From the IMG/VR virus record IMGVR_UViG_2541047954_000002, positions 1 to 43,165 of that record: 43,165 nucleotides of DNA; one strand, written 5' to 3'. The position numbers and the translations under genes were made by a program. Each line of letters starts with the position of its first letter. Position 1 is the first letter of the stretch. Shown piece after piece: positions 2,776-38,003 of this stretch. This DNA is from a virus. Its lineage: Duplodnaviria; Heunggongvirae; Uroviricota; Caudoviricetes. The notes beneath the pieces are model-generated. The model searched no databases and was not told the origin of the DNA. It saw only the letters and a list, made by a program, of their open reading frames with translations.

Positions 2776-3087
2776 TTATTCGATGCGCACTCCTGGTATT
2801 TCGCCTTTTGATATTGCGAAGTCATAAATTTGCGCAGCACTATACCCATCTCGCATCCATGAATCTAATGCGCGAATAGCCTCGCTACGCTTTTTATCTT
2901 CTCTCTCATTTTTGATATCAACGAGGACATCAACGCAATTAAGGCAAATGTGGATTTTGTCCTTACATTCGATCATGGCGGCTTTACCATGATTTCCGCC
3001 ACACAGTGAGCATAAATCTTCAGGGTCTGGCTGGTATTTCTGTAACGTTAGATGGTTGAATGTTGAACAGGCCATAATCATCTCCAT
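2776..3087 (-). CDS. Hypothetical Cys-rich (zinc-ribbon-like) protein, 103 aa
   Basis: ORF with CSLCGG...HICLNC motifs; int-proximal position; no family recognised. Confidence 0.45.
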   Translation of the reverse strand: MEMIMACSTFNHLTLQKYQPDPEDLCSLCGGNHGKAAMIECKDKIHICLNCVDVLVDIKNEREDKKRSEAIRALDSWMRDGYSAAQIYDFAISKGEIPGVRIE

Positions 3088-3146
3088 AAAACAAAACTCG
3101 CCGTAGCGAGTTCAGATAAAAGAAATCCCCGCGAGTTCGAGGATTG

Positions 3147-3470
3147 TTATTCATTGCCGATATTCACCTTTATCGCGAACACCTTTACCGGTTTATCGCC
3201 GAAGTGCGGATGTGTGATTGTCTTGATTTCATATCCGTCATACGGAACATCAATTCTACGGCTGGAATCGTCGCGCTTCGGATATCCCTTTGTGATAATC
3301 AGGCGATCATACTCCCGGAACATAATTCGCTTATTCCAGTAGTCATTACACAGGCGATACTCTTCCGTTTTCTCTCTGCGAATCATGGCATCGAAGTATT
3401 CACCTTTAACGGCAAGTTGTAGGTTAGCCAAGGTTAACCTCCTGCGGCGGTTCTGCTGCAAAATACGCAA
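3147..3470 (-). CDS. Hypothetical protein, 107 aa (start uncertain)
   Basis: Intact ORF in the early leftward operon; no confident family assignment. Confidence 0.4.
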   Translation of the reverse strand: MRILQQNRRRRLTLANLQLAVKGEYFDAMIRREKTEEYRLCNDYWNKRIMFREYDRLIITKGYPKRDDSSRRIDVPYDGYEIKTITHPHFGDKPVKVFAIKVNIGNE

Positions 3471-4275
3471 TACCTTTATCCCAGATGGATTTTATGGTCG
3501 TCCATGTGACTGGTACTTTAATTTCAATCCGCCCGCTACCGTCACAGGTATCGCAATCATCATCGCCAAAGCATTCCGGGCAGCTGATAAACGTAGTTTC
3601 TGAAAATTCACCGGATAGCGCACCCTTAGCGCCGTTCTCGGCTGTTAGTCTCTTCGGCACCATGACCCAACCATCCGGAGTTACCGGAGAGTTGCCATTT
3701 ACATCGAAGTTTGGCTCTGCGTCCTGAACCAGGAGGATGTAACCATTCTTGGCTGTATCAAGTTCTAACGCCTCGGTGACGGTGCCGAAATAGCGATTAC
3801 CTAAATCAGCATCACAAGTGCTTACATCAATGGAAACTTCCATGCCCTCGATTAATTCTGGCAAGTTGTAAGTTTGGCTTACGGGTTCGGCTTCCAGTTC
3901 TGCTATGCGCTTTTTTGCTGCTTCCAGATCAACACGCAGCTTCCCTACCGTTAGCGCAATATCCTCGTTCTCCTGGTCGCGGCGTTTGATGTATTGCTGG
4001 TTTCTTTCCCGTTCATCCAGCAGCGCCAAGACGGTAGCCGGATTGGCTGCGGCGATGAATTCAGCGTTGGCCTGCTGTTCCATTTGGAAATCTTCATCGA
4101 AACCGCTTTCTGGATGCGCTCCTTCAATTCTGCAAATAGGAATATATCCAGAAACCTCGCGATGAATTAGTGCATCATCACCATCAAATCGTCCCTCTCC
4201 ATATTCGAGCGACCATACACCACACGTTGCTTTCTCTGCCTTTTCACGCAGTGCCTGATAGTCAATCTTGCTCAC
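3424..4275 (-). CDS. Ead/Ea22-like protein with C-terminal Cys-rich zinc-ribbon; proposed GTG start with strong SD
   Basis: Contains the ANAEFIAAANPATVLALLDE-type motif and coiled-coil typical of Ea22-like proteins, C-terminal CPECFGDDDCDTCDGSG; AAGGAGG lies 6 nt upstream of the GTG at 4275; the ATG at 4467 would overlap the Lar domain by ~200 bp. Confidence 0.55.
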   Translation of the reverse strand: MSKIDYQALREKAEKATCGVWSLEYGEGRFDGDDALIHREVSGYIPICRIEGAHPESGFDEDFQMEQQANAEFIAAANPATVLALLDERERNQQYIKRRDQENEDIALTVGKLRVDLEAAKKRIAELEAEPVSQTYNLPELIEGMEVSIDVSTCDADLGNRYFGTVTEALELDTAKNGYILLVQDAEPNFDVNGNSPVTPDGWVMVPKRLTAENGAKGALSGEFSETTFISCPECFGDDDCDTCDGSGRIEIKVPVTWTTIKSIWDKGIAYFAAEPPQEVNLG

Positions 4276-5014
4276 TGTTTGCCTCCTTTGCTCGCTGATT
4301 CCACTCTGCTCTAACCTCTGAATAAAAAATCGCGCAGTCATTTCCAGGCGCTGCATATTTGCTACCAGATTGAGCGCGACACGTACCGCATCGAACGAAA
4401 TAGAATCGACCGCCAGAGCCATATTCAGGGTGATCCGCTTCGCTGGCAACGTGCGCTGCGCCGCCACAGAATGGACATGGTAGTAGGTTGCTCATGAATG
4501 CACTCCCTTGAATGCACTCCCTTGAATGCACTCCCTTGCGAAGTTGGTCTGCACAATGCAGCAGGGCGTCCGTCGCATATTTAAGCCTCACTAGCTCACC
4601 ATCATCCATTCCCGCGAGATTCGCGTGTTTAACGAACGCCGAGCAAAGGTCATTAAACGCCTGCGCCCGCACTTCATCCAGGAAAGTGTCGGTGGCTGGG
4701 GTTTCAGTAACATCATCTTCCCATTCGCTAAACTCCTCACGACAAAAGTCATTAAATTCCTTCTCAGATTGCTTAAGCGAGGTATTTTCTGCAGCCATCT
4801 TCGCGCATTTAGCCTCAAGGTTATCAATCGTGATTCCAGCAGAACGACACTCCCGCAACGCCGTTTCCAGTTTTGATTCAAGCTCACCGAACTTACGCAC
4901 CAGATATTCAGCGTTTGTTTCGTTAACCTTTAAATCTCGTGGGATGCATTTACCTTTCAGAAAACCATCCATCTCAATTAGTGACATTTGTTTCATTTCT
5001 TCCCACTCCGCCAC
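4262..5014 (-). CDS. 250-aa ORF: N-terminal unknown domain fused in-frame through a 14-bp x3 repeat to a C-terminal Lar-family restriction-alleviation domain (internal start at 4495 would give a stand-alone 77-aa Lar)
   Basis: C-terminus [42 protein letters not shown] has the CPFCG...GGRFYFV...C signature of Lar-family proteins; upstream part is acidic/coiled. Confidence 0.6.
4496..4537. repeat. Perfect tandem triplication of a 14-bp unit (GAATGCACTCCCTT; minus-strand AAGGGAGTGCATTC, contains an SD-like AGGGAG)
   Basis: Three identical adjacent copies directly 5' of the Lar-domain ATG at 4495 on the minus strand. Confidence 0.95.
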
Positions 5015-7020: not shown

Positions 7021-7169
7021 TTCCTGCGATACCACGGAAGGTTGATAGCTGATTTCATCGCTTTATTTGCTTCAAACCACATTTTGGAATCACCAATAAA
7101 TCTGGCTATTACTGCTTTGTTTTGTGCAGCACGAAGCATCTGATGATTTATGGCTATTTCATTGCGCAT
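7017..7169 (-). CDS. kil: Kil-like host cell division inhibitory peptide, 50 aa
   Basis: Hand-translated MRNEIAINHQMLRAAQNKAVIARFIGDSKMWFEANKAMKSAINLPWYRRK; the IA-FIGD-KM motif resembles lambda Kil; located immediately downstream of cIII as in lambda. Confidence 0.55.
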   Translation of the reverse strand: MRNEIAINHQMLRAAQNKAVIARFIGDSKMWFEANKAMKSAINLPWYRRK

Positions 7170-7285
7170 AATAAGACCTCAACTCTTTTCCATCCGTCAC
7201 GTAATTTACGGGTGATTCGTTCAAGTAAAGATTCATTTAATTGGAAGGCACCCATGCGAGCGCCTCCCGCGATTGCGTAAATCAT
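7154..7285 (-). CDS. cIII: CIII-like protein (FtsH inhibitor), 43 aa
   Basis: Hand-translated MIYAIAGGARMGAFQLNESLLERITRKLRDGWKR...; the ESLLERITRKLRDGWKR core is as I remember lambda CIII. Confidence 0.75.
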   Translation of the reverse strand: MIYAIAGGARMGAFQLNESLLERITRKLRDGWKRVEVLLCAMK

Positions 7286-9398: not shown

Positions 9399-9439
9399 CT
9401 GTTGTTTATGCCAAAAATAAAGGACGATTATGCGACCTC
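9399..9439. repeat. Copy 2 of the 41-bp direct repeat (degenerate hairpin)
   Basis: Same 26-bp core as copy 1; lies between the stop of the 9428..10051 gene and the start of the 8894..9364 gene. Confidence 0.85.
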
Positions 9440-10051
9440 GGAAGGAAGTCCAATCATCTTATTCAAATCTTCTACCCGTAAAGCAGGAAGTGCAGTACTT
9501 GCTTTATCTGCTTCTTTTGGTAGCAACTCTTTGCTTTCAGGCCAAACTTCAATAAGTCGCTTAACTGTTGTGACTGAGTTCAAAGCAGCCCATACATTTG
9601 ATTCGATATCCTTTTTCTTGGCTTCAAATTTTTGTTGCAATGCGCAGATTTCATCAAACCTTTTTGTTATTTCGTGTTCTGCGCTAAACATGCATTTATC
9701 TTTGGTCGGAGTAGGGAGCAATATATCTTCGCCGTTGCCGTCTTTCCCATATGAATACCAGCCAACCCTTCTGCCAGATACAGTCAGATAAATTGAAGTT
9801 GAACGGGCATCGCATGAGTAAAATGAACATCCCAGCTTTTCAAGTTCTTCACTTATAGCTACTAACTTGGATGATAACTGATCCACTTCCTCAGTTTTCT
9901 TTTTACCGCCAAACGCAATAACTCTGGCGTCAAGTGCAAGCTGGTTATTTAACTTTGTTACTTCTTCAAGTTCAGTGAAAACCCCGGACTTAATTAAAGC
10001 GTTACGAGCGATTTTCTCTTTCATTCTCGTAGTTAAGCGGATTGATGACAT
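9428..10051 (-). CDS. Hypothetical protein, 207 aa, first gene downstream of N in the pL operon
   Basis: ORF with GAGAGGAA SD before the ATG at 10051, 11 nt after the N stop; AT-rich; no family recognised. Confidence 0.5.
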   Translation of the reverse strand: MSSIRLTTRMKEKIARNALIKSGVFTELEEVTKLNNQLALDARVIAFGGKKKTEEVDQLSSKLVAISEELEKLGCSFYSCDARSTSIYLTVSGRRVGWYSYGKDGNGEDILLPTPTKDKCMFSAEHEITKRFDEICALQQKFEAKKKDIESNVWAALNSVTTVKRLIEVWPESKELLPKEADKASTALPALRVEDLNKMIGLPSEVA

Positions 10052-10062
10052 ATTAATTCCTC

Positions 10063-10389
10063 TCAAATAAGTGGTTTGCTGCCTAATTTCATTTTCTGGC
10101 GACCAACACAAGTCACACCCATTTCACTGCGTGGCTTGCTGTACCATGTGCGCTGATTCTTGCGCTCAATACGTTGCAGGTTGCTTTCAATCTGTTCGTG
10201 GTATTCAGCCAGTACCGTAAGGTCTATCGGATTCAGTGCGCTTTCTACTCGTGATTTCGGTTTGCGATTCAGCGAGAGAATAGGGCGGTTAACTGGTTTT
10301 GCGCTTACCCCAACCAACAGGGGATTTGCTGCTTTCCATTGAGCCTGTTTCTCTGCGCGACGTTCGCGGCGGCGTGTTTGTGCATCCAT
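10063..10389 (-). CDS. N: Antitermination protein N (lambda-type), 108 aa
   Basis: MDAQTRRRERRAEKQAQWKAANPLLVGVSAKPVNRPILSLNRKPKSRVESALNPIDLTVLAEYH... matches lambda N including the arginine-rich motif. Confidence 0.95.
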   Translation of the reverse strand: MDAQTRRRERRAEKQAQWKAANPLLVGVSAKPVNRPILSLNRKPKSRVESALNPIDLTVLAEYHEQIESNLQRIERKNQRTWYSKPRSEMGVTCVGRQKMKLGSKPLI

Positions 10390-10540
10390 CTGGATTCTCC
10401 TGTCAGTTAGCTTTGGTGGTGTGTGGGAGTCGTAGTCCTGAACGAAAACACCCCGCGATTGGCGCATTGGCAGCTAATCCGGATTCGCACTTCCGGCCAA
10501 TGCTTCGTTTCGTATCACACACCCCAAAGCCTTCTGCTTT

Positions 10541-10580
10541 GAATGCTGCCCTTCTTCAGGGCTTAATTTTTAAGAGCATC
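10541..10580 (-). promoter_or_regulatory. nutL (boxA GCTCTTAAAAATTAA + boxB GCCCTGAAGAAGGGC)
   Basis: Minus-strand sequence GATGCTCTTAAAAATTAAGCCCTGAAGAAGGGCAGCATTC matches remembered lambda nutL; located between pL and N. Confidence 0.85.
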
Positions 10581-10609
10581 ACCTTCATGGTGGTTAGTGC
10601 GTCCTGCTG

Positions 10610-10700
10610 ATGGCTTAAAATATACCTACAGGTAAAACTATTGTCTATACCTGCAGGTAAATAAAATTGGTGTGAGAGTTTACCTGTTTGAATTTTCAGG
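10610..10700 (-). promoter_or_regulatory. OL/pL region with TACCTNCAGGTA-type palindromic operators
   Basis: TACCTACAGGTAAA, TACCTGCAGGTAAA and TTACCTG...CAGGTAA palindromes upstream of nutL/N; the same motif recurs at OR. Confidence 0.6.
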
Positions 10701-10719
10701 TAATTAATTTTTTGGATTG

Positions 10720-10745
10720 ATATAAAAAAGCCCGCTTTGCGGGCT
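10720..10745 (-). terminator. Rho-independent terminator closing the cI operon
   Basis: Hairpin AGCCCGC-TTT-GCGGGCT followed on the minus strand by a U-run; 12 nt after the stop of the 10757..11071 gene. Confidence 0.6.
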
Positions 10746-10756
10746 GAAAGGAGATG

Positions 10757-11071
10757 TCAGAAGCTATTTGGATTGCTTGGCCATTGCGGCAATTTTGATT
10801 CTACCGGGGTGTGTTTGGGTTTGAGTCCGTTTAAGTAGTCAAGACGCTCAATGGCGCATTTATACATAGCAATCTGATCTGATGACATGTCGTCATATGA
10901 CATGCCTTTGAACTTCTTAATTATCGTTTCTGCCTCATGTATAAGATGCTTCTTCTTCATGAGTTCAGCTGTATGCTTAGAGCTTACAGGAGATAACTTT
11001 GCCCATATGAAGCAGATGATTACAACAGCGACCACTATACCTGGTATAAACATTTGCTGCTTTATCCTCAA
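10757..11071 (-). CDS. Small membrane protein (single N-terminal TM helix, 104 aa) co-transcribed downstream of cI
   Basis: Hydrophobic segment FIPGIVVAVVIICFIWAKL; start overlaps the cI stop; followed by a terminator; occupies the rexAB slot of lambda. Confidence 0.55.
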   Translation of the reverse strand: MRIKQQMFIPGIVVAVVIICFIWAKLSPVSSKHTAELMKKKHLIHEAETIIKKFKGMSYDDMSSDQIAMYKCAIERLDYLNGLKPKHTPVESKLPQWPSNPNSF

Positions 11072-11754
11072 AATTTTGGCAGATCGTCCTGGTCTACATA
11101 CCTAGTGTGTTTCACAATAGCTGAAACAAAATGCATTTTATCAACTTCTTCAACAGGAAGAGTGATTGGACGGTGATCGCTGTTTATACTACTAAACTGA
11201 TAGTCTCCGTCTCTTGTTTTGTTCATGATCTTTATCATGTTATGACCATCTTTGGTCCTTACAAAGACTTCATCACCTGGATGTACTGGCGTATTTGGTT
11301 CAATAACAACATATTCTCCTGACTGAATCCTTGGCCACATGCTGTCACCCTTAACCTTCAGACCGTAAGCATCTTTATCGCCACTGTAGATGCTTAACCA
11401 ACCGGATCTGAATTCAATCATATCCACTGAGCCATCAACTCCCAAAACGGCTTCACCAATTACCGGAACAAAACCCGCACGAACGTTACCCGCAAACTCA
11501 AGATGGTCTGCAGATCCAACTTTGCTATCTGCAAGCATGTCCATCCATCCGCGTGGGAGATTAAAAGATTTTTCAATTAGCTCCATCATATCGTCAGCAA
11601 TGCGTTTTTTTCCGCTTTTTCCTTCCGGATACAGCATTCTGGAAACGTATGATGGTTCCCTTTCTATTCGACGAGCCAACTCTGAGGCCTTTCCATTACA
11701 GAATCGGTCTCTTATCTCTATCAGCCTTAGTCGTCTTTGTTCGTATTTATCCAT
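11068..11754 (-). CDS. cI: Prophage CI repressor with C-terminal S24 (LexA-like) autopeptidase domain, 228 aa
   Basis: C-terminal KVKGDSMWPRIQSGEYVV motif; divergent from cro across an operator-containing intergenic region. Confidence 0.8.
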   Translation of the reverse strand: MDKYEQRRLRLIEIRDRFCNGKASELARRIEREPSYVSRMLYPEGKSGKKRIADDMMELIEKSFNLPRGWMDMLADSKVGSADHLEFAGNVRAGFVPVIGEAVLGVDGSVDMIEFRSGWLSIYSGDKDAYGLKVKGDSMWPRIQSGEYVVIEPNTPVHPGDEVFVRTKDGHNMIKIMNKTRDGDYQFSSINSDHRPITLPVEEVDKMHFVSAIVKHTRYVDQDDLPKF

Positions 11755-11769
11755 GATTTAATTCTATCT

Positions 11770-11835
11770 TTGATTACCTGCCGGTAAATAACCTATGGGT
11801 ATTGATTTGCTTTTTACCTACAGGTAAACTCATCT
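11770..11835. promoter_or_regulatory. OR region (pR/pRM) with TACCTNCAGGTA-type operators
   Basis: TTACCTGCCGGTAAA and TTACCTACAGGTAAA palindromes between divergent cI and cro; candidate pR -35 TTGATT / -10 TAAACT. Confidence 0.6.
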
Positions 11836-11862
11836 TATTCAACAACGGGAAGGAGATAGCAA

Positions 11863-12093
11863 ATGGAAGAACTCCGCTTGTATCTGAACTCCCTTTCACT
11901 GGAAGAGCAGAGAGAATTTGCCACCAAGTGCGGAACTTCTATCGGCTATTTGAGGAAAGCACTTAGCCGTAATCATGAATTGGGCGCAGCACTTTGTGTT
12001 CTGATTGAGAAGTTCAGCAATGGTGAAGTGACTCGCAAAGACCTTCATCCGGTTGATTGGGAAAGCATCTGGCCTGAATTAATGGCCGCTTAA
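11863..12093 (+). CDS. cro: Cro-like repressor, 76 aa
   Basis: Small ORF divergent from cI, immediately right of OR, followed by nutR. Confidence 0.6.
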   Translation: MEELRLYLNSLSLEEQREFATKCGTSIGYLRKALSRNHELGAALCVLIEKFSNGEVTRKDLHPVDWESIWPELMAA

Positions 12094-12109
12094 GTTATTA
12101 ACGCTCTTA

Positions 12110-12141
12110 CACATCCCCGCCCTGAAAAAGGGCATTACCAG
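12110..12141 (+). promoter_or_regulatory. nutR (boxA CGCTCTTACA + boxB GCCCTGAAAAAGGGC)
   Basis: CGCTCTTACACATCCCCGCCCTGAAAAAGGGC matches remembered lambda nutR; between cro and cII. Confidence 0.85.
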
Positions 12142-12209
12142 AAACAAATCTCTATGGTTTTGCGTTTCTTTGCGAAGCCAACTCTATCTAATAATTAAGG
12201 AAATTATCT

Positions 12210-12491
12210 ATGGGTACTATTGCAACTAAAAGCAAGAAAGCGGCTCGCATCGAGTCAGCCTTGCTGAACAAACTGGCACTGATGGGGCAGAAGACATTCG
12301 CTCGAGCAATGGGGGTTCCTGAATATCAGGTAAGCCGATGGAAGAATGGTTTCTTCTCGCAGGTAAGCATGATGCTGGCTGTTCTGGAATACGGAATCGA
12401 AGACGATGAAATGGCTGAGCTGACTAAGCGGCTTGCCAATTACCTGACAAAAGAAAAAGCCCCGAAGAACGGCGAATTCTTCGAGGCCTGA
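12210..12491 (+). CDS. cII: CII transcriptional activator, 93 aa
   Basis: ARIESALLNKLALMGQKTFARAMGV...SRWKNGFFSQVSMMLAVLEYGIEDDEMAEL parallels lambda CII. Confidence 0.85.
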   Translation: MGTIATKSKKAARIESALLNKLALMGQKTFARAMGVPEYQVSRWKNGFFSQVSMMLAVLEYGIEDDEMAELTKRLANYLTKEKAPKNGEFFEA

Positions 12492-12525
12492 TGTAGAAAG
12501 ACTGGAACAATCCACAGGAGTAATT

Positions 12526-12687
12526 ATGACAAAACGTCGTAAGAAATACCAGGAAAAAGAAGAGATTCGACACCCTGATTCACCTGAGGGATTAGTGGTA
12601 GCCGCAGCAAATAACAGGGCGTTCGCAGAGCGCCTTGTTGGTGTTTACAGACTAGCCAAAGCAGGAGTGAAACATGGGCGTCGTTAA
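12526..12687 (+). CDS. Small basic ORF, 53 aa
   Basis: Hand-found ORF with AGGAG SD 5 nt upstream; overlaps the start of the replication initiator gene. Confidence 0.35.
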   Translation: MTKRRKKYQEKEEIRHPDSPEGLVVAAANNRAFAERLVGVYRLAKAGVKHGRR

Positions 12688-13564
12688 ATTAGCTGATTAC
12701 AGGCATAACCCTGTACAACATCAGGAGGCATCCAGTATGGGGTATGTCTCTATACACCGCCAGTTTATGGACAGCAGGCTCTATAAGGACTCTCAGGCAG
12801 TACATCTTTGGCTTCACTTAATCCTCAAGGCTAATCACGAATCTACTGTCGTCAATACGGATATCGGTCCGATAACTGTTGATCGCGGTCAGATGATAAC
12901 TGGACGCCCGTCGCTGGTCAGAGAAACATTCATCCCCGACAACAAAGTTCGGAGCTTATTACGGACTTTTGAGTCGAAAGGGATGCTTAATATTTGCGCG
13001 ATGGGGAAGAAATTTAGCCTGTTTACAATCGTTAAATATGACGATTTTCAGTCAAAAAATTGTCCAACGGTTGTCCAACAGTTGTCCAACGCAAACACCA
13101 GTAATGGCGCGGCTCTCAGCGGAGATTGTCCAACGGTTGTCCAACAGTTGTCCATAAACAATAATATAAATAATATCTCTAATACTGACGTATTAGAGAG
13201 TGCCACAGCAGACAAAAAGTCTGACAAGAAAAAACCTTCCGTTAGCTGTCAGGATGTTGTCGATGCTTACCACGAAATCCTTCCTGAAGCTCCAAGAATC
13301 CGCGCACTGAATGACAAGCGTAAAAACCAGATCCGAACGTTCTGGCGCAAAGCCGGAGTGATAACCCGCCAGCTTGACGGGCATGGGTTCTCGATGCAGG
13401 ACTGGAGAAATTATTTGAGCTACGTAGGCGAAAATTGCCGATGGATGTTCGAAGAGCGCCCAAACCATCAACGCGGAACTGTCTGGCACAAAAAGGGATT
13501 TGATTTCCTGCTTAACGATAATACCTACCTGAAAGTTCGTGAGGGTGAACACGATGACCGATAA
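12674..13564 (+). CDS. Replication initiator (O-like / P22 gp18-like) with origin iterons inside the coding region
   Basis: Position between cII and the helicase; internal iterons encoding the duplicated peptide CPTVVQQLS; ATGA coupling to the helicase gene. Confidence 0.7.
   Translation: MGVVKLADYRHNPVQHQEASSMGYVSIHRQFMDSRLYKDSQAVHLWLHLILKANHESTVVNTDIGPITVDRGQMITGRPSLVRETFIPDNKVRSLLRTFESKGMLNICAMGKKFSLFTIVKYDDFQSKNCPTVVQQLSNANTSNGAALSGDCPTVVQQLSINNNINNISNTDVLESATADKKSDKKKPSVSCQDVVDAYHEILPEAPRIRALNDKRKNQIRTFWRKAGVITRQLDGHGFSMQDWRNYLSYVGENCRWMFEERPNHQRGTVWHKKGFDFLLNDNTYLKVREGEHDDR
13055..13165. repeat. Replication origin iterons: ~6 copies of TTGTCCAAC in two groups, followed by an AT-rich tract
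   Basis: TGTCCAACGGTTGTCCAACAGTTGTCCAACG and GATTGTCCAACGGTTGTCCAACAGTTGTCCATAAACAATAATATAAATAATATC, read directly. Confidence 0.75.
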
Positions 13565-19031: not shown

Positions 19032-19106
19032 GGGTCAGTCGTATAAAGGTCATTACGGAAGGCTGTTAACCTTCTTATCGTGGTTCGAGCCCACGCTGTC
19101 CCGCCA
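19032..19106 (+). tRNA. tRNA gene, anticodon GUU by hand folding (tRNA-Asn-like), encoded CCA
   Basis: Hand-folded cloverleaf: acceptor GGGTCAG/CTGTCCC (one mismatch), anticodon stem GAAGG/CCTTC with loop CTGTTAA, T-arm CGTGG-TTCGAGC-CCACG, 3' GCCA. Confidence 0.5.
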
Positions 19107-19111
19107 AACAT

Positions 19112-19187
19112 GCTGGTTTAGCTCCAATGGTAGAGCAGTCGCCTTGTAAGCGAATGGGTAGCGGTTCAAGTCCGTTAACCAGCACCA
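19112..19187 (+). tRNA. tRNA gene, anticodon UGU by hand folding (tRNA-Thr-like), encoded CCA
   Basis: Perfect 7-bp acceptor GCTGGTT/AACCAGC, D-arm GCTC..GAGC, anticodon loop CTTGTAA, T-arm AGCGG-TTCAAGT-CCGTT, 3' ACCA. Confidence 0.65.
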
Positions 19188-34486: not shown

Positions 34487-36483
34487 TGGCTAAAGCATGG
34501 AAAGATGTTATCGCCTCTCCACAGTATCAGGCGTTAGCACCAGAACAAAAAGCGCAGGCTCAGGAGCAATACTTCAATGAAGTCGTTGCCCCGCAAGCCG
34601 GAGAAAATGCAGAGCAGGCTAAGCAAGCTTTCTATGCTGCCTATCCATTGCCATCTGTGCAGCCAGTGGAGACACAACAACCAGTATCACAGCAACAACC
34701 ACAGCAAAGTGGATTTATGTCGGATCTTGGTGAAGCCGTGAAAGAAACTGGTCGCGGACTGGTGCAGGCTGGCGTGAACGTGGCAAACATACCTGCATCA
34801 GTTGCCGATGCTGTAACAAGCGCGGCGGCATGGGCTGGCGGTAAACTCGGCATTGGCGATGGTACATATCAACCAGCGCCACGAGTAACAACGCAGGGGT
34901 TAGAGCAGGACTTTGGCCTTCAGCAAGGCGCGCTCACTCCACAAACGACAGAGGGAAGGGTATTTGCTGAAGCATTGCCTTACCTCACTCCTGCTGGCGT
35001 TGAGAGAGCGGCAGCACAGGCACCAACACTTGCTGGTCGAATTGCTCAGGGGGCAACTCGCCTTCTAGCAGAAAACGCAGTTGGATCACTTGCTGCAAAT
35101 AGTGCGAAAGATGATGCGGAAGCACTCGCCATCGATTTAGGCGTTGGCGTTCTGGCTGGCGGTGCTATTAACGCTGCCGGACGTGGATTAGGTGCTGCTT
35201 ATCGTGGCGTTCGTGGTGCTATTGCGCCAGAAGCGCAGCAGGCTATCAGATTTGCAGAGCGTGAAGGAGTTCCTCTGCACACCACAGACCTGTTACAGCC
35301 TACTTCCCGCGTCGGAAAAATGGCGCAAACGACAGCAGAAAATATCCCCCTGGCTGGCACAAGCGGAATGAGAGCAACGCAACAGGAAGCGAGAAGCCAG
35401 TTGGTTCAGAGATTTGCTGATAAATTCGGTGAGTATGATCCAGCGGTTGTTATTGACAGCCTTAAAGCGAAAACATCAGGAATTCGTCGTGCCGCCGGTA
35501 ATCGACTGGAGCAGGTTCAGAATGCTATGGCGGGAATAAACATTCAGCCTGCAAGAGCAATTCAGCAGATTGATACAGAAATATCTAACCTGCAGAAGCT
35601 TGGTAAGGTTGCTGATAACGAGACTATTTCAAAACTTCAGTCCTATCGTGATGAGCTTGTTCGCAATGCTGGTCCTGATGGTCCGGTAAATCTGGATTTG
35701 AAGCAATTAAGCGATCTGCGCAGCCAGTTCAGAATGGATGTGAAGGGTGAGCGACCAGTGTTACCAAACCGTTCCGATGCTGCCATTCAGCGCGTTTACA
35801 AGGCAATGACCGACGATATCAATGGTGCCATTGGTCAGAATCTTGGCAACGATACTCTCCGTAAATATCAGCAGGCCAATGCCGTCTACGCTGACGAAGC
35901 GGCGAAACTAAAGAATACCATGCTGAAGAATGTTCTCATGAAAGGCGACCTGACGCCGGAAGTTGTCAACAACATGCTATTCAGCAAGAACAAATCGGAA
36001 ATTAAGACGCTGTATAACTCAGTTGGTCGTGTTGGCAGGGCGCAAATGCGCAATGGCATCATTGGAAAGGCGATGGAGAAATCAGGTGGTTCCCCTGATC
36101 AGTTCCTTCGACAGCTTAACATCCTGCAAAACCAGACTGGCATCACATTTAAGGGGCAGGACGCTGCTTATCTGAAAGGATTGAAAAACTACCTGCAATC
36201 CACGCAGCAGGCTGCAAAAGCGGCAGTAACAACACCAACAGGGCAGCAAACCATCCCGTTCATTATCGGGTATGGGACAGCAATGAACCCGGCGACAACT
36301 GGCGCAGCGGTAAGCTACGGACTTCTTACTCGCGCCTATGAGAGCGAACCATTCAGAAATGCAATGCTCCGAATGGCAAACACACCACGCGGATCGACAG
36401 CGTTTGAGAAAGCCATGCAGCAAGCGCAAAAAGCGATTAATGCACTGACGCAGGGTGCTAAGTCTGATTCGTTGTCAGAATAG
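34486..36483 (+). CDS. Ejection (DNA-transfer) protein, gp16-like, 665 aa
   Basis: Position and size in the P22-like order. Confidence 0.7.
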   Translation: MAKAWKDVIASPQYQALAPEQKAQAQEQYFNEVVAPQAGENAEQAKQAFYAAYPLPSVQPVETQQPVSQQQPQQSGFMSDLGEAVKETGRGLVQAGVNVANIPASVADAVTSAAAWAGGKLGIGDGTYQPAPRVTTQGLEQDFGLQQGALTPQTTEGRVFAEALPYLTPAGVERAAAQAPTLAGRIAQGATRLLAENAVGSLAANSAKDDAEALAIDLGVGVLAGGAINAAGRGLGAAYRGVRGAIAPEAQQAIRFAEREGVPLHTTDLLQPTSRVGKMAQTTAENIPLAGTSGMRATQQEARSQLVQRFADKFGEYDPAVVIDSLKAKTSGIRRAAGNRLEQVQNAMAGINIQPARAIQQIDTEISNLQKLGKVADNETISKLQSYRDELVRNAGPDGPVNLDLKQLSDLRSQFRMDVKGERPVLPNRSDAAIQRVYKAMTDDINGAIGQNLGNDTLRKYQQANAVYADEAAKLKNTMLKNVLMKGDLTPEVVNNMLFSKNKSEIKTLYNSVGRVGRAQMRNGIIGKAMEKSGGSPDQFLRQLNILQNQTGITFKGQDAAYLKGLKNYLQSTQQAAKAAVTTPTGQQTIPFIIGYGTAMNPATTGAAVSYGLLTRAYESEPFRNAMLRMANTPRGSTAFEKAMQQAQKAINALTQGAKSDSLSE

Positions 36484-36573: not shown

Positions 36574-37059
36574 TTATCTGATGTTACTGCTACTGTTGCA
36601 TGTTACCGCGTTTCCAAATCCTGAATTGCAGTTTGTATATGTGTCAACGCGTGTTGGGTAAGGTTGAGTTATAACAGGCTGGCGCGCTTTTTGCTCGATC
36701 GCTTGCATTGTGTTTACAGCCTGATAATTCAATAAAGCCTGCTGGAATGCTTGGCTTTGTGCTATTTGTTGGGCTTGTTCTTGGCTTTGTAATTGAACAT
36801 AAAGATTCTGAAGCTCAAGTCTTGCCTGTGCGTCACTTATCTTGCCTTCATCGACACCTTGCCCGAGCATCTTTGCAGCAAGGACATACAGCTTAGGTGT
36901 TGGTGCTGATGCCATGCGTGAGTCGTTCTTCACACTGGCATCAAGGCAATTAGCCATATCGCTAAGCTTTTGATAGCGTTGTTCGCAACTTGCTTGATAG
37001 TCACTTACTTTTGCGCACCCAGCCAGCAGAAGCGGGATAATTAACAGTGATTTTTTCAT
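36574..37059 (-). CDS. Lipoprotein (signal peptide MKKSLLIIPLLLAGC), 161 aa, opposite strand to the late operon
   Basis: Lipobox LLAGC; strong AAGGAGAG SD; in the sieA/immI slot between gp16 and the tailspike. Confidence 0.7.
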   Translation of the reverse strand: MKKSLLIIPLLLAGCAKVSDYQASCEQRYQKLSDMANCLDASVKNDSRMASAPTPKLYVLAAKMLGQGVDEGKISDAQARLELQNLYVQLQSQEQAQQIAQSQAFQQALLNYQAVNTMQAIEQKARQPVITQPYPTRVDTYTNCNSGFGNAVTCNSSSNIR

Positions 37060-37093
37060 ATAATTAACTCTCCTTAGTTTTGCGCAGGATACC

Positions 37094-37459
37094 ATGAAAA
37101 AAGTTAACATTGGAAACGTACCAAAGATGCTCGTTCCGCTCTTTGAGAGCGGTACAATTGTGTTTTGTAGAGACTTTCCAGAATGGCAACGCCTGCATCA
37201 AAAACTTGGCGTTGACGTGCATGACTCGGACGCCAACGGAGCGTCTCATACAATGAGTAGCGAGAATGGTGTTTTGCATGTGATAGGCGTGTTCAATGGC
37301 AAACTATCTACTATTGCCCATGAGTGCGCTCACATGGCATTCGATATCTGCTCAAGGGTAGGTGTTGATGTTGAACCAGGAAGAGCCAACGAGACTTACT
37401 GCTACTTAATGAGCAGGCTTGTTGAGTTCTGCGAGCGACATATCAAAAAGCCGGAGTGA
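37094..37459 (+). CDS. Hypothetical protein with HExxH motif (IAHECAHMAFD), 121 aa
   Basis: ORF with a possible zinc-metallopeptidase HExxH motif; weak SD; overlaps the probable promoter region of the lipoprotein gene. Confidence 0.3.
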   Translation: MKKVNIGNVPKMLVPLFESGTIVFCRDFPEWQRLHQKLGVDVHDSDANGASHTMSSENGVLHVIGVFNGKLSTIAHECAHMAFDICSRVGVDVEPGRANETYCYLMSRLVEFCERHIKKPE

Positions 37460-37472
37460 CCCGGCTTGATTA

Positions 37473-37652
37473 TTACTTTTTGCTGTCTGGAGTTCGCTTA
37501 TCCAATACCCAGCCATGACCTGGCTTTGTTGTTGGTGGAAGCCTTTCGTTGTCCTTGACGGTTGCAAAATTGTCTTTCTTACCGCCGCGTGGGCCAACTT
37601 CTTGGTATATTCCGCCGTTTTTTCCTGTGTTTTCACCTGGTTTTTTCGCCAT
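37473..37652 (-). CDS. Small hydrophilic protein, ~59 aa, YjzC-like
   Basis: MAKKPGENTGKNGGIYQEVGPRGG...LPPTTKPGHGWVL pattern resembles small YjzC-family proteins; hairpin plus T-run immediately downstream on the minus strand. Confidence 0.4.
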   Translation of the reverse strand: MAKKPGENTGKNGGIYQEVGPRGGKKDNFATVKDNERLPPTTKPGHGWVLDKRTPDSKK

Positions 37653-37734
37653 GATATACCTCAACATACACCCGTTATTGGGCGATTAAATATTGATCTC
37701 ATTTTATAAGTAGTCAATATGGCCCAGGTAAATG

Positions 37735-37767
37735 CAAAAATTAACCCACCTTCAGGTGGGTTTTTTG
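37735..37767. terminator. Bidirectional terminator-like hairpin overlapping the mnt stop codon
   Basis: ACCCACC-TTCA-GGTGGGT hairpin flanked by a T-run on the plus strand and by AATTTTTG on the minus strand. Confidence 0.5.
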
Positions 37768-38003
37768 TACAAATCCTTCAGCGTATCAAACACCATCTTC
37801 TTAACAAGTTCAGACTGCTCATCAGCGATGCGTTCCGCATCGTCTCGATAGCCTGAAATTTTGGATGGCTTTGATACGGCATCAGTCACTATCTGAACTA
37901 ATTCTGAATTAAGAGAGCGGCCATTGGATTTGGCTCGCTGTTTTAGTTTTTCCTTTAATTCGTAAGGTAGCCGCAGATTAAATTGCGGGTCATCTCTTCC
38001 CAT
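37752..38003 (-). CDS. mnt: Mnt repressor (ribbon-helix-helix), 83 aa
   Basis: DDPQFNLRLPYELKEKLKQRAKSNGRSLNSELVQIVTDAVSKPSKISGYRDDAERIADEQSELVKKMVFDTLKDLYKK closely matches remembered P22 Mnt. Confidence 0.9.
   Translation of the reverse strand: MGRDDPQFNLRLPYELKEKLKQRAKSNGRSLNSELVQIVTDAVSKPSKISGYRDDAERIADEQSELVKKMVFDTLKDLYKKPT

Follow-up and report, generated by a model that had tools for sequence, protein, structure and literature searches.

Which immunity specificity does this prophage carry, and is it one that is already known? The question was raised by a stretch of DNA of 43,165 nucleotides, referred to here as the window, in which a P22/Sf6-like lambdoid prophage is inserted next to ybhC, beside a lambda-type integrase. 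At positions 10541-12141, an initial annotation had recognized a recombined immunity cassette, with lambda-type N, nutL and nutR placed around a non-lambda repressor and operators, and had hinted at a new immunity type. The mosaic is real, and all of its elements lie where they were described. However, the cassette is very probably one that has been sequenced before, the immunity module of coliphage mEp043, found here in a P22-like prophage, and an ordinary known mosaic.

Relationship of the cassette to mEp043 and to other lambdoid immunity types

Positions 10541-12141 share 97.5% DNA identity with mEp043 (JQ182734 / NC_019706 / PV340537; Escherichia phage, Aguilavirus mEp043) along the whole 1601 bp; 40 substitutions separate them, and indels are absent. 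The two are colinear at 97.5-99% DNA identity through N-nutL-PL/OL, the 98-aa ORF, cI, OR, cro, nutR and cII. CI is 98.2% identical to its mEp043 counterpart, with five differing residues, at aa 77, 79, 81 and 82 in the linker and at aa 228, which is the last; aa 1-76, which include the DNA-binding domain, are 100% identical. Cro is identical at 76/76 residues. OL1, OR1, OR2 and OR3 are identical and occupy the same positions, while in OL2 the two central bases alone differ (GC here, AT in mEp043). Because of this DNA identity, the unchanged DNA-binding domain and Cro, and the identical operator half-sites, the region essentially corresponds to a known lambdoid type, and the hint of a new one does not stand.

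The hybrid arrangement itself was also already known, since mEp043 has lambda-like N/nutL and nutR flanks too. The two phages differ outside the cassette. In the N leader, a stretch of about 95 bp (10424-10517) is lambda-like here and replaced in mEp043. The late genes of this prophage are P22/Sf6-like and its replication module consists of an initiator with iterons and a DnaB-type helicase, whereas mEp043 has an O protein and a primase/helicase. The cassette occurs in 52 of 5426 complete E. coli genomes at 95-99% identity, and the CI found here is 100% identical to RefSeq WP_024186732.1, a protein of two E. coli prophages. mEp043 has been listed as an immunity group of its own, apart from lambda, HK022 and phi80, and the phages studied in that work were induced by mitomycin C (2012 paper, PMC3442831, citing Kameyama et al. 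1999). With the prophage assigned to this group, one can predict the lambdoid phages to which its host should be resistant; beyond annotation, the assignment matters little.

The expectation of a specificity distinct from that of lambda was correct. Beyond nutL, the cassette DNA has no match to lambda, 434, HK022, P22 or Sf6, and in megablast searches 434, Sf6, HK446, HK542 and HK633 align with the nutL end of the query only. On the left, lambda homology covers 10088-10615 (lambda 35062-35587), contains nutL and ends near the PL start; the right-hand homology does not begin until 12102, and no lambda DNA similarity was detected between 10616 and 12101. Lambda and 434 immunity were rejected on this pattern, in which similarity is lost at the PL start and regained at nutR. 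When the N-terminal domain of CI was compared by tblastn with 50,697 phage records, identity exceeded 45% only for mEp043 (95%) and CharmingMan (81%), and the DNA-binding domains of 434, HK022, P22, Sf6 and the other sequenced lambdoid immunity types do not correspond to the one found here.

A note in the mEp043 GenBank record hints at H-19B/933W-type immunity. Of the studied repressors, the closest is the CI of Stx phage H-19B, which also occurs in mEp506, BP-4795 and many Stx1a phages, with 49% identity overall and ~61% in the C-terminal S24 half, but its N-terminal 60 residues are only ~20% identical to those of CI here. H-19B Cro is unrelated save for a weak 28-residue match at the N-terminus, and the H-19B cI-cro intergenic region lacks TACC-N4-GGTA sites and has unrelated operators. 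This assignment was therefore rejected, with similarity limited to the C-terminal domain. Neither lambda nor H-19B has the DNA-binding domain and operators of the present cassette, and cI here is a clean case of domain-level mosaicism within one gene.

It might still be argued that the changed central operator bases and linker make this copy heteroimmune to mEp043. The OL2 difference could shift affinities, and four substitutions fall in the linker between aa 77 and 82. However, the whole folded helix-turn-helix of CI, Cro and every half-site are the same in both phages, and the central bases vary in other copies with either CI allele, which suggests that such changes are tolerated. A separate specificity for this copy is extremely unlikely.

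Table 1. Positions in the window of the genes, sites and signals of the immunity region (strand given where applicable)
Feature	Position	Strand	Basis and remarks
cIII, 43 aa	7154..7285	-	ORF list; outside 10541-12141; CIII annotated at equivalent place in mEp043
N antiterminator gene, 108 aa, lambda type	10063..10389	-	91% identical to lambda N; Pfam N36 E=1.5e-26
nutL	10548..10578	-	boxB GCCCTGAAGAAGGGC 10548-10562, boxA TGCTCTTAA 10570-10578; read from sequence
PL promoter	10619..10647	-	-35 TAGACA 10647..10642, 17-nt spacer, -10 TATATT 10624..10619; promoter scan, 10/12 matches
OL1, putative, TACCTACAGGTA	10623..10634		covers PL spacer and -10 start; half-sites invariant in 7 cassette copies
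OL2, putative, TACCTGCAGGTA	10648..10659		abuts PL -35; 25 bp from OL1
Split palindrome TACCTG-N10-CAGGTA, possible auxiliary OL3	10681..10702		read from sequence
Intrinsic terminator ending cI operon	10729..10745	-	terminator scan; 7-bp stem, 6 GC pairs, then T run
98-aa ORF, rex position, just downstream of cI	10757..11053	-	PHROG 10450 (unknown function) E=1e-55
cI, 228 aa	11068..11754	-	helix-turn-helix domain aa 1-72, linker, S24 autopeptidase domain
PRM promoter	11761..11788	-	-35 TTTACC 11788..11783, -10 TAGAAT 11766..11761; promoter scan
OR3, putative, TACCTGCCGGTA	11775..11786		overlaps PRM -35 and spacer
OR2, putative, TACCCATAGGTT on cI-sense strand	11790..11801		centred ~-41.5 from predicted PRM start
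PR promoter (inferred)	11802..11830	+	-35 TTGATT 11802-11807, 17-nt spacer, -10 TAAACT 11825-11830; read from sequence
OR1, putative, TACCTACAGGTA	11815..11826		overlaps PR spacer and -10
cro, 76 aa, YdaS-like helix-turn-helix	11863..12093	+	Pfam YdaS_toxin E=8e-6, below curated cut-off; PHROG 35 transcriptional repressor E=7.5e-16
nutR	12102..12133	+	boxA CGCTCTTA 12102-12109, boxB GCCCTGAAAAAGGGC 12119-12133; aligns with lambda from 38249
cII, 93 aa	12210..12491	+	Pfam Phage_CII E=7.6e-30; 49% identical to lambda cII
Predicted cII site of PRE, TTGC-N6-TTGC	12222-12235	-	annotated in mEp043, read in window

Operators and promoters

The operators had been described as TACCTNCAGGTA palindromes. 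Non-lambda palindromes are indeed present, but this motif is slightly too strict: both central positions vary, and position 5 is C or T in relatives. The sites are 12-bp palindromes of the consensus TACC(Y)NNAGGTA, and are assigned here as putative CI sites. With up to one mismatch allowed, TACCTNNAGGTA has four matches in the 43165 bp (at 10623, 10648, 11775 and 11815), all of which are in OL or OR, compared to 0.49 expected, and none of 100 shuffles reaches four. In seven cassette copies, substitutions inside the canonical 12-mers occur only at the two central positions. Variation in OL2 is confined to these bases (GC, AT, GT), and in OR3 they alone vary.

In OR, 25 bp separate OR1 from OR2 and 15 bp separate OR2 from OR3. 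OR2 is a third OR site, added to the set given by the initial annotation, from whose motif it differs by three mismatches. Despite these mismatches OR2 is not a poor site: its cI-sense strand reads TACCCATAGGTT, and relatives have conserved the position. In OL, the split palindrome has a rough chance estimate of ~2e-4 from hexamer counts and is possibly an auxiliary OL3; it is not conserved in the OL regions of relatives, and reads CAGGCA in the copy K56-43-un. A published operator mapping for mEp043 was not found in GenBank annotations or the searchable literature, including a full-text search for four operator 12-mers. The map is a small addition to the known mEp043 cassette, and it offers the mEp043 group a testable scheme of one consensus, three OR sites (25 and 15 bp) and two OL sites (25 bp).

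The promoters fit this array. A "putative PL" is annotated at the equivalent place in mEp043, and the PL layout recurs in Yersinia and E. coli relatives. PR agrees with the consensus at 8/12 positions, which is under the promoter-scan threshold, and the geometry of PR and OR1 is that of PL and OL1. The PRM -10 and the cI ATG are separated by 6 nt, from which a leaderless cI mRNA is predicted; TAGAAT-N6-ATG is found likewise in Yersinia relatives. Downstream of cI, the 98-aa ORF (104 aa if started from the TTG at 11071) has an N-terminal hydrophobic helix and no Pfam, NCBIfam or PADLOC match, and among phage records it occurs at high identity in mEp043 only.

Which protein reads the palindromes? 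Cro, which is also 100% identical to WP_000391959.1, co-varies with the CI N-terminal domain across relatives, so that comparative data cannot tell whether one of the two proteins or both read them. It could be proposed that the palindromes are read only by Cro or another factor and that CI binds elsewhere, since Cro homologues (47-74% identical) accompany them in every relative examined. Against this, the sites overlap PL, PR and PRM exactly like CI operators in lambda, and the two control regions contain no other conspicuous repeated motif. Moreover, relatives conserve the N-terminal domain of CI to the same degree as Cro but differ in the C-terminal domain of CI, and in lambdoid phages generally the operators are common to CI and Cro. 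Binding by Cro or another factor to the exclusion of CI is thus very unlikely.

The repressor and the proposed switch

The N-terminal domain of CI had been called unusual. This holds in that it lacks a curated model: aa 1-86 have no Pfam match at E<=0.01 (the best is MarR, E=0.11), the domain has no NCBIfam match, and a PDB sequence search with CI gave chance-level matches only. It does not hold for the fold or the frequency of the domain. In an AlphaFold2 model (pLDDT 81; helices 3-18, 23-29, 34-40 and 54-63), it is a four-helix XRE-type helix-turn-helix fold of the XRE/lambda-repressor kind, with a predicted recognition helix at aa 34-40 (SYVSRML), and proteins that contain it form 572 clusters at 50% identity. 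The word-indexed homologue search with this domain returned proteins of <=150 aa only, and the S24-fused forms were seen by an exhaustive search of representatives.

Foldseek places the Rep protein of Salmonella phage SPC32H (PDB 5d50) first among the solved structures that match the domain (E=8e-4, TM 0.72-0.75), followed by C.Esp1396I, HigA, ClgR and 434 Cro. The two Rep chains superimpose at an rmsd of 1.3-1.6 A with 23-27% identity, a likeness of fold only. SPC32H Rep was crystallised in complex with an antirepressor, according to the PDB title, whereas CI here carries an S24 self-cleavage domain. A search for an antirepressor as a second induction route found a Mnt/Arc-type repressor gene and no recognisable Ant.

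The S24 autopeptidase domain was rightly recognized in CI (Peptidase_S24, PF00717, E=1.4e-17, aa 103-204). It is LexA-like in sequence, with Ser138 in GDSM and Lys175 in MIKI as the putative catalytic dyad. Ala-Gly pairs are found at 87-88 and 92-93, of which Ala92-Gly93 is probably the cleavage site.

The closeness of N, nutL and nutR to lambda was confirmed, with N at 91% identity and both boxA and boxB present on each side of the cassette, as N antitermination in a lambdoid switch would require. The nutL boxA, TGCTCTTAA, is one base away from lambda, and its first base is variable among cassette copies; nutR is near-identical to lambda through boxB and ~66% identical thereafter. cII is lambda-like at the family level, though its identity does not support a close likeness. 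cIII has the core ESLLERITRKLRDGWKR in common with lambda cIII. At gathering thresholds, Rfam finds two tRNAs only in the window and no RNA family in the immunity region. PADLOC returns nothing for CI, the 98-aa ORF or the Nmad5 gene.

In gene order and logic the region resembles lambda, with divergent cI and cro, a tripartite OR overlapping PR and PRM, another set of operators at PL, an accessory gene following cI, a repressor with an S24 domain, a -10 box placed for a leaderless cI mRNA, and N with near-identical nutL and nutR. The parts that would confer specificity are different. The operators are 12-bp TACC-N4-GGTA sites compared to 17-bp sites in lambda, OL has two canonical sites compared to three, Cro is YdaS-like and outside the lambda Cro fold family, and the CI DNA-binding domain, compared with that of lambda, is unmatched by any Pfam helix-turn-helix model. 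The OR spacing is 25 and 15 bp, while in lambda it is 24 and 23 bp. The 15 bp between OR2 and OR3 suggest that the rules of cooperativity may differ.

The cassette most likely works as a lambda-type bistable switch. CI dimers would bind the TACC(Y)NNAGGTA palindromes through the XRE-type helix-turn-helix, blocking PL from OL1 and OL2 and PR from OR1 and OR2. The place of OR2 relative to PRM is that of lambda CI activation, so OR2 may serve the same role, and at high CI the overlapping OR3 would shut PRM off. The PRM transcript would start at the cI AUG, carry the membrane-anchored 98-aa ORF and end at the intrinsic terminator. On the lytic side, Cro would act on the operators that it shares with CI, and the lambda-type N would antiterminate at nutL and nutR, while lysogeny would be set up by cII at PRE together with cIII. 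Induction would follow from RecA-stimulated self-cleavage of CI by the S24 domain.

A cassette that is intact in sequence could also lie in a defective prophage and control no viable phage. Many lambdoid prophages of E. coli are cryptic, and a related copy, GF43, has a truncated N. In the window, however, ORFs are present for cI, cro, N, cII, cIII, int and the replication genes as well as for a complete late region of the P22 type, and the promoters and operators are intact, which makes an inert remnant improbable.

Relatives that share the N-terminal domain and the operators

Among relatives, the N-terminal domain of CI is found together with Cro and the operator array, and this unit is linked to no fewer than three types of C-terminal part: the H-19B-like S24 domain of this prophage and of mEp043, a different S24 domain in CharmingMan (PP925830), and a short helical tail without S24 in repressors of ~137 aa from E. 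coli Rac-like and Yersinia prophages. A common repressor DNA-binding domain without a Pfam or NCBIfam model has been recombined with different C-terminal domains. Compared to CI here, CharmingMan and the short repressors have N-terminal domains of 65-81% identity and Cro proteins of 47-74% identity (81% and 47% in CharmingMan), with the same operator consensus and similar OR/OL spacing. Their routes of inactivation are probably different from that of CI here.

In CharmingMan, the OR sites are TACCCACAGGTA, TACCCACAGGTA and TACCAACAGGTA, spaced by 25 and 15 bp, and its two OL sites are 26 bp apart. Yersinia loci have three operator sites at matching distances from the ATG, with an identical OR3 sequence, and the E. 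coli short repressor locus has two clear operator sites upstream. CharmingMan, the E. coli short repressor locus and the Yersinia loci each have a site corresponding in position to OR2, 15 bp away from OR3 and 24-25 bp away from OR1, and the 25-bp OL pair is conserved in the Yersinia and E. coli relatives. The retention of OR1, 25 bp, OR2, 15 bp, OR3 and a -10 box 6 nt before the ATG supports both the operator assignment and a lambda-like switch.

It is possible, though doubtful, that this unit of N-terminal domain, Cro and operators is a mobile sub-module and that resident short repressors cross-repress mEp043-type phages. Across the three C-terminal types, both the predicted recognition helix and the half-sites of the operators differ very little, and the short, presumably non-cleavable repressors of cryptic elements might therefore act on such phages. 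If this were true, cross-repression would give SOS-insensitive immunity or blocked induction, and one specificity would span repressors with different induction routes.

The immunity cassette and its lambda-like flanks

The cassette at 10541–12141 belongs to an already known immunity type. In a megablast search of 50,697 phage records, the only full-length matches were three records of mEp043 (97.5% identity), a coliphage from the Mexican mEp collection, an origin confirmed by PMC9836094. All other phages, including lambda, 434, Sf6, HK446, HK542 and HK633, match just the first 75–85 bases, which constitute nutL. Base-by-base comparison with the mEp043 cassette gives 40 substitutions and no indels. 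The Cro proteins are identical, and the CI proteins differ only at residues 77, 79, 81, 82 and 228, so that residues 1–76 are the same in both. The lambda-like N, nutL and nutR flanks are present in mEp043 too. This phage has been studied alongside lambda, HK022, phi80, mEp213, mEp235, mEpX1 and mEpX2, with mitomycin C used to induce prophages (PMC3442831), and cI and cro move together as a unit in mEp-type phages (PMC9836094). The initial annotation, which proposed a naturally recombined cassette of distinct specificity, was therefore right in kind; the specificity is real, yet it is not a new type, having already been established for a sequenced reference phage, which PMC3442831 lists as an immunity group of its own.

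The cassette is also found in 52 of 5426 complete E. coli genomes at 95–99% identity, in one copy each and always on the chromosome. The CI of the ECONIH4 and K56-43-un prophages (WP_024186732.1) is identical to that of the window. No difference separates the clear-plaque mutant mEp043 c-1 from the 2025 mEp043 record between the N leader/nutL and nutR (3001–4601 of loci L002 and L001, respectively), so the lesion of c-1 has to be sought elsewhere; the record lengths differ by 100 bp.

As initially noted, N, nutL and nutR are close to lambda. N is 91% identical to its lambda counterpart, with marked differences only in the last ~20 residues, and DNA homology extends from 10088 to 10615, ending at about the predicted PL start, the classical left border of lambdoid immunity regions. 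Homology restarts at 12102 (nutR boxA), is near-identical to the end of boxB, and then drops to ~66%. cII and cIII had also been called lambda-like, which holds for cIII, where the lambda core ESLLERITRKLRDGWKR is retained, but less so for cII, which is just 49% identical. Within the N leader, a stretch of ~95 bp that separates nutL from the start of N (10424–10517) resembles lambda in the window, and does not align with mEp043, whose counterpart is ~205 bp, or with three of the E. coli carriers examined (ECONIH4, K56-43-un and PA45B). This stretch is a micro-mosaic patch within a block otherwise shared.

In its left half, the window has only ~43% in common with mEp043. Other carriers of the cassette differ in their N and cII alleles and in their replication modules, and in K56-43-un the right-hand junction lies just beyond nutR, at 12173. 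This is standard lambdoid mosaicism, in which the immunity module is swapped between nut sites.

Operators and the predicted switch

Sequence reading and an ORF listing identify 9500–13500 as a canonical lambdoid early control region.

Features of the early control region (promoters and operators as predicted)
Feature	Position	Strand	Remarks
cIII	7154–7285 (to the left of 9500–13500)	minus	
N	10063–10389	minus	Pfam N36
nutL boxB	10548–10562	minus	GCCCTGAAGAAGGGC
nutL boxA	10570–10578	minus	TGCTCTTAA
PL	−35 10647..10642; −10 10624..10619	leftward	TAGACA, TATATT; 10/12 consensus matches
OL1	10623–10634		spans PL spacer and first two bases of −10
OL2	10648–10659		abuts PL −35
Strong intrinsic terminator	10745..10729		
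98-aa ORF	10757–11053	minus	to 11071 with TTG start
cI	11068–11754	minus	228 aa; Pfam Peptidase_S24 at aa 103–204, E=1.4e-17
cI–cro divergent control region			108 bp
OR3	11775–11786		overlaps PRM −35 and spacer
OR2	11790–11801		TACCCATAGGTT on cI-sense strand
OR1	11815–11826		relation to PR as OL1 to PL
cro	11863–12093		76 aa; sub-threshold Pfam YdaS match
nutR boxA	12102–12109		
nutR boxB	12119–12133		GCCCTGAAAAAGGGC
cII	12210–12491		Pfam Phage_CII

The palindromic, non-lambda operators of the initial annotation are present beyond chance expectation. Across the 43,165 bp, four sites match TACCTNNAGGTA with at most one mismatch (10623, 10648, 11775 and 11815), all of them within the two control regions, compared to 0.49 sites expected from shuffles, and none of 100 shuffles reached four. 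The stricter motif first proposed, allowed two mismatches, gave 11 matches against 6 expected, which is not significant, and the signal therefore resides in the near-perfect sites. The third OR site was fixed at 11790–11801 from site positions in the CharmingMan, E. coli and Yersinia relatives described below, and the consensus of window and relatives is TACC(Y)NNAGGTA. Seven cassettes were compared, those of the window, of mEp043 and of five E. coli prophages, and all substitutions within the canonical 12-mers fall at the two central positions (GC/AT/GT in OL2, GC/AT in OR3, AC/GC in OR1 and A/G in OR2), while the half-sites TACCT and AGGTA are invariant. Such central-only variation is the pattern expected of a dimeric helix-turn-helix protein that makes no central-base contacts. 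A split palindrome, TACCTG-N10-CAGGTA, is found at 10681–10702, 22 bp past OL2, with half-sites one helical turn wider apart than in the canonical operators (chance ~2e-4 by our own estimate); it is missing from the OL regions of the relatives and mutated in one E. coli copy.

The PRM −10 box, TAGAAT (11766..11761), ends six bases ahead of the A of the cI ATG (11754), and no Shine-Dalgarno sequence precedes this ATG, so that the cI mRNA, like that of lambda, probably lacks a leader. PR is predicted at 11802–11830 (TTGATT, 17 nt, TAAACT) and, with 8/12 consensus matches, would be weaker than PL. The centre of OR2 would lie ~41.5 bp upstream of the predicted PRM start, a putative activating position; lambda CI activates PRM from ~41.5 bp upstream of the start. 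OR1–OR2 and OL1–OL2 are each spaced 25 bp compared to 24 bp in lambda, which would be compatible with pairwise cooperativity and OL–OR looping. Unlike in lambda, OR2 and OR3 are 15 bp apart (~1.4 turns), a spacing that would speak against adjacent cooperativity there. The S24 domain of CI contains GDSM (Ser138) and MIKI (Lys175), and Ala-Gly pairs occur at 87–88 and 92–93; analogy with the VAAG of LexA favours Ala92-Gly93, in the context NVRAGF, as the candidate cleavage site. Within the start of cII, TTGC-N6-TTGC on the minus strand (12222–12235) matches the PRE cII site annotated in mEp043.

Directly after cI and ahead of the strong terminator, the 98-aa ORF encodes an N-terminal hydrophobic helix. 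It has no match in Pfam, NCBIfam or PADLOC and matches PHROG 10450, a family of unknown function; among phage records a close copy is found only in mEp043, with phages N7 and HZ41 at 37%. In lambda, rexAB occupies this position. The ORF may be expressed in the lysogen and act in exclusion or conversion.

The CI N-terminal domain and its relatives

The initial annotation called this domain unusual and noted its attachment to an S24 autopeptidase domain. CI residues 1–86 have no Pfam match and the domain no NCBIfam model, and Peptidase_S24 is present; the domain is nevertheless common and of a familiar fold. When 1.84 billion cluster representatives were searched exhaustively, 572 clusters matched at E<=1e-3 (213 at E<=1e-10), and PHROGs 5736 and 27486 cover the domain. 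Among 150 clusters listed of the 572, lengths range from ~60 to 400 aa, mostly 120–250, and all ten long forms tested carry Peptidase_S24. Aligned across 40 homologues, ~72 residues are highly conserved (MDKYExRRxRLIxLRDxxCxGKAxxxARxIxREPSYVSRMLYPEGKxGKKRIADDM...LPRGWLD). The AlphaFold2 model from this alignment (pLDDT 81) has helices at 3–18, 23–29, 34–40 and 54–63 and a disordered linker at 75–86. Its top Foldseek PDB match is the SPC32H phage repressor (5d50; TM 0.72–0.75, 23–27% identity), followed by C.Esp1396I, C.EcoT38IS, HigA, ClgR and 434 Cro, and it is therefore an XRE/lambda-repressor-like helix-turn-helix domain.

The nearest studied repressor, H-19B CI, is ~61% identical in its C-terminal half compared to ~20% in its N-terminal 60 residues, and its operators are unrelated to those of the window. 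The linker thus marks a site of recombination within cI. In keeping with this, the internal CI differences from mEp043 are confined to the linker, and the DNA similarity to phage CharmingMan is limited to 11540–11807. CharmingMan was found by tblastn with the N-terminal domain alone; this domain is 81% identical and is joined to an S24 domain of another kind. The operator array is also similar, with TACCCACAGGTA, TACCCACAGGTA and TACCAACAGGTA at OR, spaced 25 and 15 bp, and TACCTGCAGGTA and TACCTATAGGTA at OL.

The same domain (66–81% identity) occurs in short repressors that lack S24, in two contexts: an E. coli Rac-like element (139 aa) and Yersinia enterocolitica prophages (137 aa). In the Yersinia loci, three sites lie just as far from the repressor ATG as those of the window do (about −72, −47 and −32), and TAGAAT follows them, six bases ahead of the ATG. 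Two sites are clear at the E. coli locus, near −71 and −47, and the third is degenerate. At both, an OL pair 25 bp apart flanks a −35 box. The Cro proteins of the CharmingMan, E. coli and Yersinia loci are related (47–74% identity), so that what is conserved as a unit comprises the CI N-terminal domain together with Cro and the operators. Whether CI or Cro reads the palindromes cannot be separated by comparing relatives. The analysis adds a predicted operator map of the mEp043-type cassette, supported by this comparison, and brings out a repressor DNA-binding domain that is common, has no name and is shuffled among differing C-terminal domains. Cross-immunity of the short-repressor elements with mEp043-type phages is possible. 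The short-repressor genes lie at 2501–2920 of locus L012 and 2501–2914 of L015 and L016 (proteins P0005, P0007 and P0011); the E. coli gene adjoins YdaT and DicB genes, and its 90% cluster comprises 543 sequences.

Prophage context

The window opens with what we take to be the host gene ybhC (1–1284), followed by a lambda-type integrase with a lambda Arm-binding domain (1419–2489), an order that probably places the prophage at the lambda attachment site. Erf, Kil and cIII are among the early-left genes, and the late region is P22/Sf6/CUS-3-like and contains portal, injection-protein and tailspike genes. The gene that directly follows N in the early-left operon (9428–10051, minus) belongs to the Nmad5 family (nucleotide modification associated domain 5; Pfam E=2.8e-70); it also occurs in the STEC711 prophage but not at the equivalent place in mEp043. 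At 13060–13145, TTGTCCAAC is repeated exactly five times, in two clusters with a spacing of 11 bp. These repeats lie within the gene for a 296-aa replication initiator (12674–13564) and are probably origin iterons. Between the injection-protein and tailspike genes (36574–38003), a Mnt/Arc-type ribbon-helix-helix repressor gene (37752–38003, minus) sits beside a lipoprotein-like ORF and a 121-aa ORF without a family match. No antirepressor gene is recognisable in this interval, which may therefore be a remnant or variant of P22 immI. Adjacent tRNA genes, Asn-GTT and Thr-TGT, are located at 19032–19187, ahead of the lysis and late genes.
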